Source: Candidatus Iainarchaeum sp. (lineage in GTDB: Archaea; Iainarchaeota; Iainarchaeia; Iainarchaeales; 1-14-0-10-31-34). Taken from it: a stretch of DNA of 64,000 nucleotides. The stretch's first letter is position 1, and every line of letters begins with the position of its first letter. This document shows positions 2,084 to 52,218 of the stretch, piece by piece. Under the pieces are notes generated by a model. That model was not told the DNA's origin, searched no databases, and was given only the letters and a program-made list of their open reading frames with translations. Location of the stretch: NCBI GenBank assembly GCA_017609625.1, contig JAFCDN010000002.1, positions 2,785 to 66,784 on the forward strand, written 5' to 3'. The translations under genes and the position numbers were made by a program.

Positions 2084-2545
2084 ATGCAATTTGAATATTT
2101 AGAGCACACAGCAGATTTAAAGTTTCGAGCTTTTGGAGAGACAAAAAAAGAGTTAATAGAAAACTCTGGAAAAGCTTTATGCAATGCAATAATTGATTCT
2201 GGCAGTGTGGAAGAAAAAGGAAAAGGAATTATTGCAGTGCAGGCAGAAAACTTTGAACAGGTTTTGTTTGATTTTTTAAAAGAAGTTTTGTTTCAGATTG
2301 ACACGCAAGAAATTATTTTTTCAGAGTTCAAAGTAACTGAATTAAAAGAAGCTGAACCGCCTTTTTCAGAAAAAGGCAGGTTGCCAAAAACCAAAAAAGG
2401 GATTTTTCTAAAAGTTGAAGCATCAGGAGAAAAAATAAATTTAGATAAACATGAAGTGAAAACAGAAATCAAAGCAATAACAAAACATGATTTTAAAGTA
2501 GAAAAAAAAGAAAAATGGATTGCAGAAGTTTTAGTTGATGTGTGA
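2084..2545 (+). CDS. Archease (RtcB activator) carrying a palindromic-repeat-encoded insert
   Basis: MQFEYLEHTADLKFRAFG... archease N-terminal signature; RtcB lies 600 bp downstream; insert EAEPPFSEKGRLPKTKKG is encoded by the repeat at 2355-2392. Confidence 0.85.
   Translation: MQFEYLEHTADLKFRAFGETKKELIENSGKALCNAIIDSGSVEEKGKGIIAVQAENFEQVLFDFLKEVLFQIDTQEIIFSEFKVTELKEAEPPFSEKGRLPKTKKGIFLKVEASGEKINLDKHEVKTEIKAITKHDFKVEKKEKWIAEVLVDV
2355..2392. repeat. Type-B palindromic repeat (GCCTTTTTCAGAAAAAGGC + AGGTTGCCAAAAACC) in frame inside the archease CDS
   Basis: Near-copies at 17468-17503, 24983-25018, 26076-26114 and 26303-26340. Confidence 0.7.
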
Positions 2546-10953: not shown

Positions 10954-11001
10954 AACAAACTTTTAGAAAAAGTTTGATCAAAACAAAAATTAGGTGAAAA
11001 A

Positions 11002-13666: not shown

Positions 13667-13931
13667 AAAAAGAGAAGAAAAAAGCATCAAAGTCAGAGGC
13701 AACATATTCAAAGGAATAGTAGTTAGCAGCAAGCCAAGCAAAACAGTAATAATTGAAAGAATTATTACAAAAAAAGTTCCAAAATACGAAAGATACAAAA
13801 AAACAAAATCAAAAATCTCTGCGCATAATCCTGAATGGATTAACGCAAAAGAAGGGGACACAGTAAAAGTAGGAGAAACAAGAAAATTAAGCAAAACAAA
13901 AAATTTTATAGTATTAGAGGTAGAAGACTAA
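13659..13931 (+). CDS. rps17: 30S ribosomal protein S17 (uS17)
   Basis: 90 aa; GIVVSSKPSKTVIIERIITKKVPKYERYKKTKSKISAHNPEWINAKEGDTVKVGETRKLSKTKNF. Confidence 0.9.
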   Translation: MSKKREEKSIKVRGNIFKGIVVSSKPSKTVIIERIITKKVPKYERYKKTKSKISAHNPEWINAKEGDTVKVGETRKLSKTKNFIVLEVED

Positions 13932-13967
13932 CCTTTTAAGAAAAGGTTAAACAAAAAGGAGAAAAAT

Positions 13968-14367: not shown

Positions 14368-15000
14368 GTGATTAAAATGAAAACAAAAAAACCTTCAAAG
14401 CAAAGAAGAAGATTATACAAAGGAAAACTCCATGAAAGGAAAAATGTTTTAAGTGCACATTTAAGCAAAGAGTTAAGAAAAGAAACAGGAAAAAGAAGTT
14501 TAATGGTAAAAAAAGGAGACAAAATTAAAATAATGAGAGGACAGCACAAGAAAAAAGAAGGAAAAATACTTCAGGTTGATCATAAAAAAGCAAAAATTTT
14601 CATTGAAAAAATTACAAGAAAAAAAGCAGACGGAACAGAAAAACTGATTCCATTTAAGGCAAGCAATTTGGTTTTATTGGAACTGGAAAGAAAAGATGAT
14701 AAAAGATTGAAAAGAGCAAAACAACCTTTTTCAAAGAAAAAGCTTGACCAAAAAACTGAAAAAGAAGAAAAGGAAAAAGAAACAAAAACTGAAGAAAAAC
14801 AACCTTTTTTAGAAAAAAAGGTTGCAACTCAAACCAAAAGTTTGAGTGCACAACAAAATCAAGATTTTGTTAGTGAACAAAAAACTGACCAAAAAAAAGA
14901 AGCACCAAAAGAAACACCTTTTTCAGAAAAAGGGGTAACAAAAACACCAGAAAAAAAAGAAACAGTTAAAGAAGAAAAGAAAGAGGAAAAAAAGGAGTGA
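14368..15000 (+). CDS. rpl24: 50S ribosomal protein L24 (uL24) with a ~100-aa C-terminal extension built from palindromic repeat elements
   Basis: KOW core MVKKGDKIKIMRGQHKKKEGKILQVD; the tail contains ...KQPFLEKKVATQTKSLSAQQNQDFVSEQK... and ...TPFSEKG... Confidence 0.9.
   Translation: MIKMKTKKPSKQRRRLYKGKLHERKNVLSAHLSKELRKETGKRSLMVKKGDKIKIMRGQHKKKEGKILQVDHKKAKIFIEKITRKKADGTEKLIPFKASNLVLLELERKDDKRLKRAKQPFSKKKLDQKTEKEEKEKETKTEEKQPFLEKKVATQTKSLSAQQNQDFVSEQKTDQKKEAPKETPFSEKGVTKTPEKKETVKEEKKEEKKE
14791..14885. repeat. ~95-nt composite three-hairpin repeat element, copy A, in frame in the rpl24 3' extension
   Basis: AACCTTTTTTAGAAAAAAAGGTT + CTCAAACCAAAAGTTTGAG + ACAAAATCAAGATTTTGT; a copy at 51911-52005 differs by 1 nt. 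Confidence 0.8.
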
Positions 15001-16776: not shown

Positions 16777-17313
16777 ATGAAAGGACAGGAAAAAATAACT
16801 GAAGTTCCGGAAGGAACAAAAGCAGAAGTCCAAGGGAACACAGTAAAAATCAGCGGAAAGCTGGGAACACTAGAAAGAGATTTTACCCACAACAAAGTGA
16901 AAATAGAAATACAGGAAAACAAAATAAAAATTTCAACAAAAGAAGTTTCAAAAAGAACAAAAAAAAGGATAAACACAGTTAACGCACACATAAAAAATAT
17001 GATTATAGGAGTAACAAAAGGTTATACTTACAAAATGCAGATTGTTTTCTCACACTTTCCAATAAATGCGACAGTAAAAGGAGATACAGTTGAAATAGTA
17101 AACTTTGTGGGAGAAAAAAACCCAAGAAAATCAAAAATAGTCGGACAGACAAAAGTTGAAATAAAAGGAAAAGAAATTACAATAACAGGAAACAACAAAG
17201 AAGACGTTGGACAGACAACAGCAAATATAGAAAAAGCAACAAAAATAAAAAACAGGGATTCAAGGGTTTTTCAGGACGGAATATATTTAACAGGAAAAGC
17301 GGTGAGCGAATAA
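16777..17313 (+). CDS. rpl6: 50S ribosomal protein L6 (uL6)
   Basis: ITEVPEGTKAEVQGNTVKISGKLGTLERDF...; ATG at 16777 is preceded by AAGGTG; the ORF track extends to 16756. Confidence 0.85.
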   Translation: MKGQEKITEVPEGTKAEVQGNTVKISGKLGTLERDFTHNKVKIEIQENKIKISTKEVSKRTKKRINTVNAHIKNMIIGVTKGYTYKMQIVFSHFPINATVKGDTVEIVNFVGEKNPRKSKIVGQTKVEIKGKEITITGNNKEDVGQTTANIEKATKIKNRDSRVFQDGIYLTGKAVSE

Positions 17314-17954
17314 TGCCAGAAGAAACAAAAAAACAAACAGAAGGAAAAAAAGAATCACCAAAAGAAAAGAAAAAAGAGATACTTACAGAAAAAGAGGAAG
17401 ATTTAGCCAAAGAAGAAAAGAAAACCACAAAAAAAAATGATAAAAAAGAAACCAAACCAACAACTGAAAAACCTGCTTTTGAGAAAAGCCAGGTTGCCAA
17501 AACCAAAGAAGAAAAAAAGCCTGCTGAGAAACCCAAACCAAAAAAACCAGAGAAGCCAAAAGCAGTGAACAAAATAGAAAAAACAAAAGAACAGAAAAAA
17601 TTGCAGGAAAAAATAAAAGAAAAAAAAGTCCCAGTGATAAGGGGAAACTTTGGAAAAGCATGGTTAAGAAGAAAAGCAATAAAAAAATGGCAGAAATGGA
17701 GAAAACCAAGAGGAATAGATTTTAGATTAAAAAAAGAGAACGGAGCAAAACCAAAAATGGGTTTCAGATCTCCAGCAGAAATAAGAGGACTGCACCCCTC
17801 AGGCCTGCAGGAAGTTTATGTGAGAAATTTAAATGAACTGAAAGAAATAAAAGAAAAAAATAAAGTAATAAGATTAAACGGAAATATCGGAAAGAAAAAG
17901 AAAAAAGAAATACTAAAAAAAGCCAAAGAAAAAAAAATGAGGATACTAAACTAA
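17313..17954 (+). CDS. rpl32e: 50S ribosomal protein L32e (eL32) with a ~100-aa K/E-rich N-terminal extension containing a palindromic repeat
   Basis: Core GKAWLRRKAIKKWQKWRKPRGIDFRLKK...GFRSPAEIRGLHPSGLQEVYV; the extension includes KPAFEKSQVAKTKEEKK, encoded by the repeat at 17468-17503. Confidence 0.85.
   Translation: MPEETKKQTEGKKESPKEKKKEILTEKEEDLAKEEKKTTKKNDKKETKPTTEKPAFEKSQVAKTKEEKKPAEKPKPKKPEKPKAVNKIEKTKEQKKLQEKIKEKKVPVIRGNFGKAWLRRKAIKKWQKWRKPRGIDFRLKKENGAKPKMGFRSPAEIRGLHPSGLQEVYVRNLNELKEIKEKNKVIRLNGNIGKKKKKEILKKAKEKKMRILN
17468..17503. repeat. Type-B palindromic repeat variant (AAACCTGCTTTTGAGAAAAGCCAGGTTGCCAAAACC) in frame inside rpl32e
   Basis: Differs by 2 nt from the copy in rps4 at 24983-25018. 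Confidence 0.7.
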
Positions 17955-22015: not shown

Positions 22016-22492
22016 ATGGTTGTATTTAGTGCAGTATTAGATGTAACATTATTTGCAGTGATTGTAGGATTAATTTCCCAGGCATTGCAGAGAAAGTTAA
22101 TGGACAAAAAAGCCCAGAAAGCTAAACAGCAGGCAATGAAAGAAAAACAAAAAAAACTAAAAGAATTAATGAAACAAGGAGATGAAGCATCAAAAAAAGA
22201 AGCAGAAAGACTTAACATGGAATTAATGGGCGACATGAAAGACATGTTCAAAGGAATGCAAAAATTCATGATTGCATCATTGATTGTAATAATGCCTATA
22301 TTTTATTTAGGAGTAAGCACTTATGCAAAGGAAACATTTATTGTATTTGGATGGAAAGTACCTCAGTTTATTTTTCCGCCGTATATTGTATGGTATTTTA
22401 TTTCCAGCATAATTTTCAGCATAATTTTTAATTTGATAATGAAAGCAGTAGAACCGGCTCTTGAAAAAAGACAGTTAGCCAAAACCCAATAA
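22016..22492 (+). CDS. DUF106 / EMC3-Oxa1-like membrane insertase homolog
   Basis: 158 aa; TM, a charged coiled-coil segment (KKAQKAKQQAMKEKQKKLKEL...), then 2 TM; archaeal DUF106 normally follows secY/adk. Confidence 0.55.
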   Translation: MVVFSAVLDVTLFAVIVGLISQALQRKLMDKKAQKAKQQAMKEKQKKLKELMKQGDEASKKEAERLNMELMGDMKDMFKGMQKFMIASLIVIMPIFYLGVSTYAKETFIVFGWKVPQFIFPPYIVWYFISSIIFSIIFNLIMKAVEPALEKRQLAKTQ

Positions 22493-22590
22493 GTGATTTT
22501 ATGACACAACACACCTTTTTTGAAAAAAGCTGTACCAAAAACGTTTTCGCTAAAGCGAAAACTTGCTTTCTTTTCTTTGGGCAACCTACA

Positions 22591-22619
22591 CTTTCTTTTC
22601 TTTATGAAAGAAAAGAAAA
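22591..22619. promoter_or_regulatory. Perfect 13/3/13 palindrome CTTTCTTTTCTTT-ATG-AAAGAAAAGAAAG in the DUF106/L34e intergenic region
   Basis: A related hairpin CGTTTTCGC-TAAA-GCGAAAAC lies at 22542-22562; a similar CGTTTTCG...CGAAAAC motif also occurs in the tRNA-Leu intron. Confidence 0.35.
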
Positions 22620-22635
22620 GACAGAGTGAGATTAA

Positions 22636-24187: not shown

Positions 24188-25048
24188 ATGGGAGACCCAA
24201 AAAAAACAAAAAAGAAATACATCAGGCCAAGAAAACCTTGGGACAGAACCAGGCTAGATGAAGAAAGAAAACTAAAAGAAACTTATGGACTGAAAAACAA
24301 AAAAGAGCTTTGGGGATTGGAACAAATACTAAAAAGCAAGAGACAAAACGCAAGAAAACTGCTTGCATTAGAACTGGAAAGAAGGCTTAAAAGAGAAAAA
24401 GAATTAATGGACAGCCTGAAAAAAATAGGTTTAGTAAAAGAAAATGCTTCACTGGATGACATTTTAAGTTTAAGAATAGAAGAGTTTCTTGAAAGAAGGC
24501 TTCAGACAATAGTCTGGAGAAAAGGACTTGCAAACACAGTAAAACAGGCAAGACAATTCATTGTTCACGGACATATAGCAATAAACGGAAAAAAAGTAAC
24601 AAAACCCTCATATATTGTTAAAACAGAAGAAGAAGGAAAAATAAATTACTACAAAAAACCTCTCAAACTGAAACAGGAGAAACCTAAAACAAAAAAAGAC
24701 TTGAAAAAAGAATTCAAAAAAGCAGAATCAACAGAAGGGGCTGAAAAGCAATTAAAAACAGAAGGAAAAAATAAAGATTTAGTTAAAGAAAAAACTGAAA
24801 CAAAAAAAGAATCTCCTAAAGCAGAAAAAGAAACCCCAAAAACTAAAAAAAAGAAAGAAGAAAAACCAAAAAAAGAAAAAACTGAAGATAAAAAAACAGA
24901 AACAAAAGAAAAGGAAGAAAAAGAACCTCAAAAAACTGAAGAGAAACCAGCAGAAAAATCAGATGAAAAACCAAAAACAGAAAAACCAGCTTTTGAGAAA
25001 AGCCGGGTTGCCAAAACCAAAGAGAAAGAACAAGGTGAAGAAAAATGA
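24188..25048 (+). CDS. rps4: 30S ribosomal protein S4 (uS4) with a ~130-aa K/E-rich C-terminal extension ending in a palindromic-repeat-encoded peptide
   Basis: Core ...[34 protein letters not shown]...; the tail ends ...[24 protein letters not shown]. Confidence 0.9.
24983..25018. repeat. Type-B palindromic repeat variant in frame at the 3' end of rps4
   Basis: AAACCAGCTTTTGAGAAAAGCCGGGTTGCCAAAACC; encodes [12 protein letters not shown]. Confidence 0.7.
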
Positions 25049-26010: not shown

Positions 26011-26225
26011 GCAGGGGTACCCAAGCGGTCAACGGGGCAGGACTTAAGAAACCTTTTTCAGAAAAAGTTTCATCAAAACTGCCTTTTTCACAAAAAGGCA
26101 AGCTGCCAAAAACGTTTTCGTTTCACGAAAACACGCAAAGCGTTTTTTGGTAAATCTTTTTTGAAAAAAGATTTTGGGAGATCCTGTGGCTTAGTGCCTT
26201 CGAGAGTTCGAATCTCTCCTCCTGC
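26011..26225 (+). tRNA. tRNA-Leu(UAA), class II with a long variable arm, containing a 132-nt intron at the canonical 37/38 position (26049-26180)
   Basis: Acceptor GCAGGGG pairs with CTCCTGC, discriminator A; U8, A14, G18G19 present; anticodon stem CAGGA/TCCTG; loop CTTAAG|A with anticodon TAA; 15-nt variable arm TGGCTTAGTGCCTTC; T-arm GAGAG-TTCGAAT-CTCTC; no encoded CCA. Confidence 0.8.
26049..26180 (+). other. tRNA-Leu intron composed largely of palindromic repeat units
   Basis: Contains AAACCTTTTTCAGAAAAAGTTT, a type-B unit (26076-26114), a CGTTTTCG...CGAAAAC hairpin and AAATCTTTTTTGAAAAAAGATTT. Confidence 0.65.
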
Positions 26226-26302
26226 ATAAACTTTTTAGAAAAAAGTTTAATCAAAAAAAAACCTTTTTAGAAAAAAGGTTGAACAAAAACAAAGTTTAAT
26301 CA

Positions 26303-26340
26303 AAACCGCCTTTTTAGAAAAAAGGCAGGTTGCCAAAAAA
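26303..26340. repeat. Type-B palindromic repeat, intergenic copy, inside a cluster of three hairpin units at 26229-26345
   Basis: AAACTTTTTAGAAAAAAGTTT, AACCTTTTTAGAAAAAAGGTT and CCGCCTTTTTAGAAAAAAGGCAGGTTGCCAAAAAA occur in series. Confidence 0.7.
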
Positions 26341-26357
26341 TAAAAAAACGTGAAAAT

Positions 26358-27885: not shown

Positions 27886-28593
27886 ATGGAAAAAGAAACA
27901 ACAACCGAAACAGAAAGATACCTGAAAACAGGAGCACATATCGGAACAAAATACAAAACAGGAAATATGCTGAAATATATTTACAAAAGCAGAGAAGACG
28001 GATTAAAAGTAATGGATATTAAGACACTAGATGAAAGAATAAACATTGCTGCGAAATTTATTTCAAAATATGAAAAAGAAAAAGTAGTTGTTGTTTCAAG
28101 AAAACTATATGGAAAAACCCCAATAAAAGAATTTGGAAAAGCAACCGGAACAAAAGCAGTTCACGGAAGGTTTGTTCCAGGATCATTCACAAACCCTGAA
28201 GGAAAAAAATTTATTGAACTGGCTTTATTGATTGTAACAGAACCAGATACAGATTTTCAGGCAATAAAAGAAGCAAAAAAGTTGAAAGTTCCTATTATTG
28301 CATTATGCTCAACAAACAACTCAACAAAAGACGTTGATTTAGTTATTCCAGTGAACAATAAAGGAAGAAAAAGCCTTGCTTTAGTTTACTGGACGCTTGC
28401 AAAAATAATTTTACTTGAAAGAGAAGAAATAAAAAACGAAAAAGAATTCAAAAAAACAACTGAAGACTTTGAATACAAAATAAAGGAAGGCAAAGAAGAA
28501 CTAATGAAAGAAAGAATGGCAATGGAAAGCAAAAGAAAAGGCAAAGGAAGAGGCAGAAGAGGCCCTCCAATTAAAAGGCCTATGAGGCGCTAA
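27886..28593 (+). CDS. rps2: 30S ribosomal protein S2 (uS2)
   Basis: 235 aa; ...YLKTGAHIGTKYKTGNMLKYIYKSREDGLKVMDIKTLDERI... Confidence 0.9.
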   Translation: MEKETTTETERYLKTGAHIGTKYKTGNMLKYIYKSREDGLKVMDIKTLDERINIAAKFISKYEKEKVVVVSRKLYGKTPIKEFGKATGTKAVHGRFVPGSFTNPEGKKFIELALLIVTEPDTDFQAIKEAKKLKVPIIALCSTNNSTKDVDLVIPVNNKGRKSLALVYWTLAKIILLEREEIKNEKEFKKTTEDFEYKIKEGKEELMKERMAMESKRKGKGRGRRGPPIKRPMRR

Positions 28594-28595
28594 AC

Positions 28596-28690
28596 CTTTT
28601 TAAAAAAAAGGTTTAACAAAAACAAACTTTTAGAAAAAGTTTGATCAAAAAAACCTTTTAAAAAAAGTTTCACTAAAAAGATTAATGATA
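28596..28690. repeat. Intergenic array of three palindromic hairpin units (AAACCTTTTTAAAAAAAAGGTTT, AAACTTTTAGAAAAAGTTTG, AAACCTTTTAAAAAAAGTTTC)
   Basis: Same family as the 10953-10990, 13922-13950 and 26229-26345 copies. Confidence 0.65.
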
Positions 28691-44333: not shown

Positions 44334-45038
44334 TTAGCCCTCTAAAAGTTTTTCTATTACTGCTCTGAATTCTTTTGCTTCTGAATCCAAATCGTTTTCT
44401 CTTTCATAGCCGTTTCCTATTCTAGAGTATTTACAGCCAAAAATAAAATTCGGAACATAGCCTTTTGGATTGAATTGCTGATAAATTGCTTTCTCTGAAG
44501 CCGGAACAGAAGTTTCAACTTCTGAAGTCAAAGTATTGTCTCCAGTATCCAGTTTCCAATGAAATGCAACAATTTTTTCTTCATCAATTAATTCTTTCAT
44601 TGCAGAATCAAAGGTTTCTAAAATCCAAGTGCAGTGAGGACAGCTAGTAGTTGAAAACAATCTTACAACAGGTTTTCCGTCTTCCAAACAAATTTCACCG
44701 TCTGTTTCAATAAAAGTTCCAAAAGTTCCAATGTCTTTTGGTTCTATTGTTTCTTCTCCATTTTCTCCTGGATCATTTGTCGTGTCAGAACCATCTATTG
44801 TATCAGAACCATCTATTGTATCAGAACCATCTATTGTATCAGAACCATCTATTGTATCAGAACCATCTATTGTATCAGAACCATCTATTGTATCAGAACC
44901 ATCTGTCGTGTCGTCAGTTTGTTCCTGCTGAGCAGAAGTGTTTGTTGTGTTTGTTACTGACTGGTTTATGCATCCGCTGACCAAAACAAACAAAATTAAA
45001 GTTACTATAATTAATTGTTTAATGATTTCGCCCTCCAA
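44334..45038 (-). CDS. Thioredoxin-fold (CPHC) lipoprotein-like protein with a (DGSDTI)x7 linker
   Basis: N-terminal TM then LVSGC lipobox-like; 7 tandem DGSDTI units; ...RLFSTTSCPHCTWILETF... thioredoxin CxxC. Confidence 0.6.
   Translation of the reverse strand: MEGEIIKQLIIVTLILFVLVSGCINQSVTNTTNTSAQQEQTDDTTDGSDTIDGSDTIDGSDTIDGSDTIDGSDTIDGSDTIDGSDTTNDPGENGEETIEPKDIGTFGTFIETDGEICLEDGKPVVRLFSTTSCPHCTWILETFDSAMKELIDEEKIVAFHWKLDTGDNTLTSEVETSVPASEKAIYQQFNPKGYVPNFIFGCKYSRIGNGYERENDLDSEAKEFRAVIEKLLEG
44785..44910. repeat. Seven tandem 18-bp repeats (TCAGAACCATCTATTGTA on the + strand; 6 perfect and 1 variant) inside the thioredoxin-like gene
   Basis: Direct reading of the sequence; encodes (DGSDTI)n on the - strand. 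Confidence 0.9.
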
Positions 45039-51415: not shown

Positions 51416-52021
51416 GTGATTAATTTGGTTGAGCATAAACAAGAAAAAGAAGCAGAAAAGCATAAAGACAAGAAAAAACAAAAAAAAGACCCTAAAGATG
51501 TAAAAATTGAAGAACTGACTGAATTAGTTAAAAGAGTTCAGGCAGAATTTGAGAATTTCAAGAAAAGAGAAGAAAAAGACAGGAAACAATTTGTAGAGTA
51601 CAGCAATGCAGAATTGATTTCCAATTTGCTTCCTGTTTTAGATTCAGTCCAAGCAGCCGAAAATACAGAAGAAGCAAAAAAATTAATTCAACCAATAAAA
51701 ACACAATTAACACAAGTATTAGAAAAATATGGATTAAAAGAAATAGAAGCTCTAGGAAAAAAATTCAATCCAGAATTGCATGACTGTTTAATGCAAGAAA
51801 ATGATTCAGAAAAAGAAAATAATATTGTATTAGAAGAACTGCAAAAAGGATATACTTTGAAAGACAAAGTTTTAAGGCATGCAAGAGTGAAAATCAACAG
51901 AAAAAAAACAGAAGAAAAACAACCTTTTTTAGAAAAAAAGGTTGCAACTCAAACCAAAGGTTTGAGTGCACAACAAAATCAAGATTTTGTTAGTGAACAA
52001 AAAAAAGGAGAAGAAAAATAA
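51416..52021 (+). CDS. grpE: Nucleotide exchange factor GrpE with a palindromic-repeat-encoded C-terminal tail
   Basis: ...LLPVLDSVQAA...GKKFNPELHDCLMQE...; the tail KKTEEKQPFLEKKVATQTKGLSAQQNQDFVSEQKK is encoded by repeat copy B. Confidence 0.8.
   Translation: MINLVEHKQEKEAEKHKDKKKQKKDPKDVKIEELTELVKRVQAEFENFKKREEKDRKQFVEYSNAELISNLLPVLDSVQAAENTEEAKKLIQPIKTQLTQVLEKYGLKEIEALGKKFNPELHDCLMQENDSEKENNIVLEELQKGYTLKDKVLRHARVKINRKKTEEKQPFLEKKVATQTKGLSAQQNQDFVSEQKKGEEK
51911..52005. repeat. ~95-nt composite three-hairpin repeat element, copy B, in frame at the grpE 3' end
   Basis: Differs from 14791-14885 by 1 nt (AAAGG vs AAAAG). Confidence 0.8.
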
Positions 52022-52218
52022 TAGTAAAAAATTAAATTCAAAATTTTTAGGAGATAAATTTTATGAATATAGAAGTTCAAGAAGAATTTGAGGAAGAAGA
52101 AATTCCAGAGATTCCAGAAGATGCAAAACCAGAACCTTTTTCAGAAAAAGGTTCAGAAAAAAACCAGAAAAAATTAAGGTTTGAGATTTATGCAAATTAA
52201 AAAAAAAGGTGATAAAAA

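Follow-up and report, generated by a model that had tools for sequence, protein, structure and literature searches.

How does one palindromic sequence of about forty nucleotides come to lie in the reading frames of unrelated genes, in the intron of a transfer RNA (tRNA) gene and in the spacer between genes of a single archaeal genome? The question is raised by a stretch of 64,000 nucleotides (nt) from Candidatus Iainarchaeum sp. (assembly GCA_017609625.1, contig JAFCDN010000002.1, positions 2,785 to 66,784 of the forward strand), the whole of which we call the window, and by a short hairpin element that recurs in it. The window has 42.6% A and 33% G+C, and it holds an archaeal ribosomal-protein cluster whose proteins bear long extensions rich in lysine and glutamate (K/E-rich). 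We think it probable that the element is a non-autonomous repeat of the kind known as repetitive extragenic palindromes (REP), Rickettsia palindromic elements (RPE) or miniature inverted-repeat transposable elements (MITE), that it is strongly associated with tRNA introns and that it has multiplied at the DNA level in DPANN archaea. What carries this reading is the membership of the copies in one family, covariation in the stem, filled and empty sites among orthologs, the use of two frames and both orientations, the continuity of the reading frame through the inserts and the enrichment in tRNA introns.

An earlier note, made from the letters of the window, had described five copies. A search of the window with a covariance model (R1, built from 54 copies of many genomes, five of them the window copies, and run with the filters off) returned exactly these five as strong full-length matches, all on the plus strand, with E-values from 8e-16 to 6e-11; the next-best match scored 19 bits and covered the hairpin only. 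A pattern for the 13-nt tail of the element matched six times in the window, against 0.75 matches expected from shuffled sequence. The five copies, and a sixth in which the palindrome has been lost, are the following:

2352-2393 (R1 match 2354-2393), plus strand: copy 1, 59.3 bits, a 42-nt in-frame insert in archease (open reading frame, ORF, 2084-2545).
17469-17506, plus strand: copy 2, 48.7 bits, in frame in the K/E-rich N-terminal extension of ribosomal protein L32e (ORF 17313-17954).
24983-25020, plus strand: copy 3, 44.6 bits, in frame near the C-terminus of ribosomal protein S4 (ORF 24188-25048).
26076-26115, plus strand: copy 4, 55.2 bits, within the 122-nt intron of tRNA-Leu(UAA).
26303-26342, plus strand: copy 5, 61.4 bits, intergenic, about 80 nt past tRNA-Leu and 18 nt before the start codon of L18e.
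22451-22488, plus strand: decayed sixth copy, 10.7 bits, forming the last 13 codons of an EMC3/TMCO1-like gene, palindrome lost.

Pfam confirmed the hosts of copies 1 to 3 (Archease, Ribosomal_L32e and S4 domain, with the L32e domain at amino acids (aa) 117-213 and the S4 domain at aa 103-148) and their frames are open, so that the in-frame position claimed for these copies holds. The copies in L32e and S4 differ, as had been claimed, by 2 nt over about 41 nt. The hairpin of copy 1 reads CCGCCTTTTT-CAG-AAAAAGGC(A)GG, followed by TTGCCAAAAACC, and its insert peptide is AEPPFSEKGRLPKT; copy 2 is a variant with T4 and A4 runs and a swapped G-C pair, and its peptide is KPAFEKSQVAKTK. Translated in frame, the archease copy gives EPPFSEKGRLPKTK and the L32e copy KPAFEKSQVAKTKE. 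The decayed copy encodes a C-terminal extension, EPALEKRQLAKTQ*, of the EMC3/TMCO1-like protein.

What defines the element? It is 36-42 nt long. The base of its hairpin is conserved, whereas the top varies, and the hairpin is followed by a 3' tail, TTGCCAAAA, that is conserved as well; as a consensus the element reads (AA)C-Y-GCC-T(4-5)-loop-A(4-5)-GGC-A-R-G-TTGCCAAAA(A), with only a weak AA as the 5' flank. Among 54 distinct copies the A of the base CYGCC/GGC-A-RG is always bulged and the stem is 99.1% paired. Pair 5-38 is UA in 29 of these copies, CG in 21 and UG in three, which is covariation of Y with R, and pair 7-35 is CG in 49 and GC in three. As the search patterns did not fix the outer positions of the left arm, the complementarity of the two arms is an independent observation, and since both Y-R states are found with both lengths of the T-run, the covariation exceeds one inherited change. 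The stem may also be longer at its top, with all added positions complementary, as in CCTTTTCTCTTTT-AGA-AAAAGAGAAAAGG. Folded as single-stranded DNA, copies 1 and 5 reach -9.8 kcal/mol (z -3.7) and -10 kcal/mol (z -4.5); the fold is weaker in coding copies 2 (z -2.6) and 3 (z -1.5), and the decayed copy has none (z -0.5). A T-run of at least five in the hairpin goes with an A-run of at least five in the tail in all 17 copies that have it, and of 24 copies with a T-run of at most four, 19 have a tail of four A. This makes a difference of exactly 3 nt between the two main variants. The pairing in the stem shows that the hairpin is structurally constrained. The element matched no known RNA family: at the gathering score Rfam had no family match for the element in the window, and the related loci matched only tRNA and rRNA.

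How widely is the element distributed? We scanned one genome per species with a pattern that proved over-degenerate, and of the 114 loci returned about 100 were chance matches in bacteria that had no hairpin. Fifteen matches lay in metagenome-assembled genomes (MAGs) of DPANN archaea; all of these had a matching left arm, and no other match did. The depositors had labelled the MAGs Iainarchaeum, Diapherotrites, Micrarchaeota, Pacearchaeota or plain archaeon, and all taxon labels used here are theirs. A stricter scan of metagenomes gave 54 loci, many of which share samples with the closest relative of the window. Related loci are referred to below by L-numbers. The further copies for which a covariance model had been proposed in the earlier note therefore exist, about 58 distinct ones in DPANN genomes and metagenomes. 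Viral contigs of IMG/VR yielded zero matches, and we rejected a viral or plasmid origin on this ground. Literature searches, whether for the sequence or for the topic, turned up no description of the element. The copies fall into the following niches:

Inside tRNA introns (anticodon loop and T-arm), often in tandem: 15 copies.
Within about 100 nt of a tRNA gene: 7 copies.
Internal to coding sequence, in frame: 12 copies, plus 2 found by the model.
At the 3' ends of ORFs: 5 copies (L122, L126, L128, L137, L158).
Other intergenic DNA, in both orientations: 19 copies.

The three niches that had been proposed from the window (intergenic, intronic and exonic in frame) are thus those of a palindromic element at the level of DNA. 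It is often embedded in larger mosaics of several hairpins, and its intergenic copies lie in both orientations at the 5' as well as the 3' ends of genes. Could it then be a regulatory hairpin between the genes of operons, for instance a terminator, a stabiliser of messenger RNA (mRNA) 3' ends or a site for a dimeric DNA-binding protein? The sequence GGCAA-G-TTGCC is itself palindromic, with GGCAAGTTGCC as a putative core of a protein site, five copies are at or on the 3' ends of ORFs, and hairpin arrays are frequent between the genes of the window. The hairpin also has, on each strand, a run of four or five T, and such a run is an archaeal termination signal. However, the hairpin is followed by an A-run and not by a T-run, copies in essential genes and in introns would cause premature termination, and orthologous spacers exchange their modules freely. 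The mixed orientations and positions relative to genes are inconsistent with a terminator, which we rejected, and we consider a regulatory hairpin in general unlikely.

How are the copies inside genes read? Fifteen coding copies could be phased (the 12 internal copies found by pattern, the two found by the model and a copy in S4 of L173), and in all of them the coding strand, whichever it is, translates the hairpin as (P/L)-x-F-(S)-E-K. This answers the question of phase bias posed in the earlier note: the 15 copies share one reading phase of the hairpin, sense or antisense. The hosts are unrelated (archease, L32e, S4, GatD, fumarase and a Zn-ribbon protein), and beyond those verified by Pfam the gene calls rest on ORFs. 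Every coding copy is an insertion of 3n nt that is free of in-frame stops and leaves the frame behind it intact. Matches to Pfam domains go on in the same frame past the insert in archease, in L123 (Fumerase) and in L124 (GatD_N, then Asparaginase); the Fumerase match of L123 covers aa 15-307 against 267 profile positions, and its approximately 26 extra residues are the element and two hairpins. In GatD of L124 and L152 the element is antisense to the gene and still in frame, in the linker from GatD_N to the asparaginase domain, where it gives the peptide FGNLPFSEKG. The element is poor in stops, with 4.62 of six frames open against 2.69 in shuffles and 3.40 in random 40-mers of the window, and its stops are confined to the loop; some non-coding copies hold stop codons in the coding frame, and copy 5 has a TAG in the P-x-F frame. 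As for the tail, GGTTGCCAAAA is read aGG-TTG-CCA-AAA (RLPK) in archease and G-GTT-GCC-AAA (QVAK) in L32e and S4, two additional nt in the hairpin being balanced by one in the tail. Of the peptides described in the earlier note, the uniform frame of the hairpin part stands, but the tail is not one peptide, since it is read in two frames (RLPKT or QVAKT).

It might be argued that selection in K/E-rich tails has acted on a peptide, P-x-F-E-K-x-Q-V-A-K-T-K, and that the palindrome and the similar non-coding sequences are incidental. The P-x-F frame of all 15 phased copies accords with this, as do the AAAAGCC (Ser) variant, which is confined to coding copies, and the similar peptides that outlive the hairpin (EPALEKRQLAKTQ in the window and KPSFEKKHTAKTEK in L32e of L173). 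However, the two frames of the tail, the antisense copies, the non-coding position of about three quarters of all copies and the covariation of base pairs indicate a repeat at the level of nucleic acid and not a conserved peptide. In addition, the hosts have no relation to one another, close orthologs are without the peptide, and matches to E-K and K-T come cheaply in tails so rich in K and E. We rejected the peptide as the primary explanation and regard it as very improbable.

A different proposal is that the coding copies are mRNA introns of the bulge-helix-bulge (BHB) type, excised by the tRNA splicing endonuclease, as is the case for the cbf5 intron of Crenarchaeota. The element is also present in bona fide tRNA introns, and the EndA endonucleases of DPANN archaea accept relaxed motifs (PMC5829648). 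Yet splicing would demand neither the preserved frame nor the lack of in-frame stops seen in every coding copy. A strict BHB scan, which recovered the true splice sites of two control introns but is noisy in A/T-rich DNA and insensitive to relaxed motifs, gave no candidate bracketing the element in L32e, S4, L24, S4 of L173 or GatD; the candidates around the archease and fumarase copies were weak (3+2 to 3+3 bp). With no convincing strict BHB candidate, we rejected splicing of the coding copies, an explanation to which we give hardly any credence. As they keep both the downstream frame and the P-x-F frame, the coding copies are predicted to be translated.

That the element is an insertion is best seen where orthologs are found with and without it. 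In the closest archease ortholog, L001 (about 90% nt identity), window positions 2352-2393 face a clean gap of 42 nt, and the insert sits in a loop that is variable among 16 orthologs and in comparison with PDB 4n2p. For L32e, the closest ortholog (L172) is without a copy and L173 has the decayed copy mentioned above. S4 of L173 carries a full-scoring copy of its own (L173:7256-7295, 53 bits, KPLFSEKSRLPKT), which lies about 90 codons upstream of the site used in the window. The EMC3 gene of L173 stops about 12 codons sooner, the window having an insertion of 35-39 nt at the stop codon, and the L24 tail of the closest relative, L172, is without a 21-nt and an approximately 135-nt insertion that bear hairpins. 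Similarly, the GatD insert is missing from eight orthologs at 74-80% identity. In the spacers, L119 has unrelated hairpins at the site of copy 5, and upstream of aIF2-gamma L095 has a hairpin array of about 220 nt that includes the element where the window has 10 nt; orthologous spacers swap hairpin modules freely. An apparent 62-nt indel between L065 and L121 proved to be an artefact caused by a run of N. The peptide is thus not common to the orthologs of archease, L32e and GatD, and the S4 copy is elsewhere in L173. The earlier note had stated that its proposal would fall if there were no further copies and if orthologs shared the peptide without the palindrome, and we found neither.

The tRNA gene that contains copy 4 is found by ARAGORN when introns are allowed:

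26011-26226, plus strand: tRNA-Leu(UAA), with a 122-nt intron at about 26049-26170.

The intronic location given in the earlier note was therefore correct. The gene was detected neither by ARAGORN with default settings nor by Rfam at the gathering threshold; introns packed with these repeats cause such genes to be missed, and tRNA counts for such DPANN MAGs are probably too low and estimates of their completeness biased. The intron consists of four or five hairpin modules, and the element is internal, behind another hairpin. The tail of copy 4, CCAAAAAC, can pair with GTTTTTTGG later in the intron. Copy 4 is kept in the orthologous introns of L119 and L132; in L119 the exons are identical to those of the window and the 3' half of the intron has been replaced by other hairpins. 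Besides these Leu introns, anticodon-loop introns with the element occur in tRNA-Gly (L026) and tRNA-Trp (L127, L140), and with two copies in tRNA-Thr (L051, in tandem) and tRNA-Ser (L081). On a 759-kb contig and a related 170-kb contig, two to four tandem copies fill introns at the junction of the T-loop and T-stem. When the 167-nt insert is removed from L159, ARAGORN calls tRNA-Pro(UGG). At least five tRNAs have T-arm introns with the same termini, CTGCC...GGCAG(G/A)...GGAGRAAGT. At L142:9980-10190 a single tRNA gene has three introns, in the D-loop, the anticodon loop and the T-arm, each made of hairpin modules.

Is the tRNA intron, then, the place where the element has a function? It could have been a structural RNA module of DPANN tRNA introns, selected there and spread by intron transposition, for example a helix that presents the bulge of the 5' splice site to the endonuclease or a handle for a protein, with all other copies as by-products. 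Much in the distribution speaks for this: 15 of the 58 copies are in tRNA introns and seven more lie within about 100 nt of tRNA genes, and of the intronic copies 14 are sense and one is antisense. In introns of tRNA-Gly, tRNA-Thr, tRNA-Trp and tRNA-Leu (L132), the 5' splice site is usually followed within 0-7 nt by the left arm, and the common termini of the T-arm introns would fit as well. In the L081 tRNA-Ser intron the inner helix of a strict BHB is built from the intron-initial CTGCC, and in introns of tRNA-Leu and tRNA-Trp a TTTTGGTAA further downstream is the pairing partner of the tail. Such a partner was present for 6 of 48 copies against a background of 3.3%, mostly in these introns, and doublets like those of REPINs were accordingly rejected as the general form of the element. 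Furthermore, DPANN archaea have marked tRNA gene disruption and a splicing endonuclease, EndA, of broad specificity (PMC5829648, PMC3239211). Against such a function stand the internal position of the element in the tRNA-Leu intron of the window and the orthologous tRNA-Trp introns of L127 and L140, in which the canonical copy is in opposite orientations and at opposite ends (that of L127 has an extra, decayed inverted copy at its 3' end). In most real introns here the element is not part of a strict BHB, the majority of copies lie outside tRNA genes in both orientations, and the in-frame coding copies are left without explanation. We regard this reading as the main rival, though a rather unlikely one; it could be compatible with the element being a mobile repeat. 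In either case, tRNA introns are a tiny share of non-coding DNA and their share of the copies is far above the neutral expectation. The tRNA intron is a favoured niche of the element and not an incidental one.

How archaeal tRNA genes gain introns is a long-standing question. It may be, and we put this forward tentatively, that in DPANN archaea the gain and growth of tRNA introns has the hairpin module as its agent, or that the module is a fossil of this process. Selfish repeats would enter tRNA genes at canonical and T-arm positions, would be tolerated there by virtue of an endonuclease of relaxed specificity, and would then amplify in tandem; the same repeats would also remodel essential proteins through in-frame insertion. 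If this were true, it would be direct evidence for an origin of archaeal tRNA introns from mobile repeats.

Returning to the element as a non-autonomous repeat, we hypothesize that it has spread at the DNA level by transposition or recombination, possibly with the help of an enzyme specific for the hairpin. By analogy, its likely recognition features, namely the conserved base, the bulged base, the single-stranded flank and the variable top, would resemble those of the substrates of the Y1 transposases of IS200 and of the REP-associated tyrosine transposases (RAYTs). Copies would persist only at sites where they are harmless or can be removed. In tRNA introns the splicing endonuclease would remove them, and tandem amplification could occur there; in intergenic spacers they would be tolerated in either orientation, often in mosaics with other hairpin modules; and in genes they would be tolerated if their length is a multiple of three and they fall in a surface loop, an interdomain linker or a K/E-rich tail. 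The tolerated frame would be the one in which the palindrome gives (P/L)-x-F-(S)-E-K on either strand, and after insertion the palindrome would decay.

Several observations weigh against this reading. With 22 of the 58 copies in or beside tRNA introns and an intronic orientation of 14 to 1, the intron excess and the sense bias are greater than expected from random insertion combined with purifying selection, so that a role at the RNA level or an intron-specific propagation may contribute. The covariation in length between the T-run and the A-run of the tail, which is seen even in non-coding copies, is not explained by it. The restriction of the Ser variant to coding copies, together with the similar peptide retained in decayed ones, hints at some selection at the protein level. 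The conservation of the tail is partly built in, as the search patterns fixed the tail when copies were collected. Target-site duplications could not be read in the A-rich flanks of the filled and empty sites in archease and EMC3. Lastly, no mobilising enzyme and no autonomous parent were found in the 0.5 Mb of related sequence that we searched. A query for Y1 transposases did find an IS200-like Y1_Tnp gene, confirmed by Pfam, 4 kb from a copy of the element (L128:139-663). It is flanked by the hairpins CCACTGGTTTGTAACCAGTGG and CCACCGGTCTCCGACCGGTGG, which are unique and unrelated to the element, and these ends speak against it as the mobiliser. Beside this gene, at L128:720-1400, a HicA/HicB-like pair is enclosed by three copies of AAATGATTAGCAGC, which gives the region the look of a cassette.

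The element is accompanied in the window by other hairpin modules, some of them also in frame:

14788-14888, plus strand: three-hairpin composite, in frame in the C-terminal tail of L24.
51908-52008, plus strand: second copy of the three-hairpin composite, in frame in the C-terminal tail of GrpE.
14912-14955, plus strand: hairpin-only relative of the element, CCTTTTTCAGAAAAAGG, in the L24 tail (peptide TPFSEKGVTKTPEK; repeat family D19; R1 hairpin-only score 16.5 bits).

The composite is laid out as hairpin-GGTTGCAAC-hairpin-GTGCA-hairpin and gives the peptide QPFLEKKVATQTKSLSAQQNQDFVSEQK in the L24 tail. The L24 and GrpE copies have two mismatches over about 100 nt, the composite is missing from the L24 tail of the closest relative, and intergenic DNA of L095 has a homologous composite with a compensatory change from C-G to T-A. 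Spacers of the window also contain arrays of a simpler, type-1 hairpin, xxCTTTT(T)-NNN-(A)AAAAGxx (10956-10976, 13929-13949, 26227-26280 and 28591-28667), set apart by A(A/T)CAAAA linkers, and the orthologous spacers of relatives hold different modules; two such hairpins (26227-26249 and 26260-26280) precede copy 5. The spacer between EMC3 and L34e (22493-22635) is better conserved than its flanking genes in comparison with L173:5095-5228. It has a long stem, CTTTCTTTTCTTT...AAAGAAAAGAAAAG, and a hairpin, GTTTTCGCTAAAGCGAAAAC, with a compensatory change from G-C to A-T. It may be a structured leader or a small RNA, and it is similar to the module located after the element in the intron of tRNA-Leu. 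Between grpE and dnaK, 52064-52201 is a candidate small ORF (MNIEVQEEFEEEEIPEIPEDAKPEPFSEKGSEKNQKKLRFEIYAN) that contains the hairpin GAACCTTTTTCAGAAAAAGGTTC, and 44756-44930 consists of seven tandem 18-nt units (CATCTATTGTATCAGAAC), probably coding on the minus strand.

What would such a repeat mean for its hosts? In ultra-small archaeal genomes, short selfish or structural repeats would be reshaping ribosomal proteins, archease, GatD and a fumarase domain, in parallel to the RPEs of Rickettsia in another domain of life. As one 40-nt module is found in tRNA introns at several positions as well as genome-wide, the question of intron gain becomes testable, and the growth of tRNA introns is tied to dispersed repeats. 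Sites at which the element is present or absent could, in addition, act as strain markers.

Among known systems, the RPEs come close in behaviour: they are palindromic repeats found in frame in unrelated and often essential genes and also in non-coding DNA (PMC10969869). The element shares with them the in-frame palindromic insert, the peptide segment compatible with the protein fold and the non-coding copies. However, RPE-1 to RPE-10, compared by their descriptions, are bacterial and about 100-150 bp long, whereas the element is DPANN archaeal and 36-42 nt long, has a non-palindromic 3' tail, occurs in both orientations and is concentrated in tRNA introns. In build it is more like the REPs, REPINs and bacterial interspersed mosaic elements (BIMEs), which are likewise imperfect hairpins, 20-40 nt long, that combine with other hairpins into mosaics; the hairpin base and a single-stranded flank are conserved in them and one base is extrahelical, and REPs too occasionally form inverted doublets, as do 6 of 48 copies here. 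The flank of REPs is a 5' GTAG and that of the element the 3' TTGCCAAAA, and REPs are strictly extragenic, in contrast to the 12-14 copies of the element in coding sequence and 15 in tRNA introns. REPs and REPINs are mobilised by RAYT (Y1/HUH) transposases, which are known from bacteria; the 0.5 Mb examined here contained one Y1_Tnp ORF, that of L128, with its unrelated hairpins. Like a MITE, the element is short, non-autonomous, multicopy and structured and shows presence/absence polymorphism, and some bacterial MITEs make in-frame fusions (PMC10969869), but it is below the usual MITE size and its inverted repeat is the hairpin itself. Differences from an intrinsic terminator (an A/T-rich stem, then GTTGCCAAAA, in both orientations) and from CRISPR (clustered regularly interspaced short palindromic repeats) are plain: copies are dispersed, and the tandem runs in T-arms repeat a whole unit of 41-55 nt without unique spacers, so that CRISPR was rejected for want of spacer architecture. 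Transposition of tRNA introns has been described in the Thermoproteales (Fujishima et al. 2010, via PMC4090602), and there is a likeness in that similar intron sequences recur in different tRNAs (Leu, Gly, Thr, Ser, Trp and Pro here, in the T-arm too). The unit shared here, however, is a tandemly amplified 40-nt module and not a whole intron, and dispersal in intergenic and coding DNA is not reported there for the Thermoproteales, which are Crenarchaeota and not DPANN. Unlike transposed BHB introns, the element had no BHB at its own boundaries in the strict scan and is a module inside introns. Its size, its host domain, its 3' tail and the sharing of one module by intron, spacer and exon thus set the element apart from RPEs, REPs and BIMEs and the introns of Thermoproteales.

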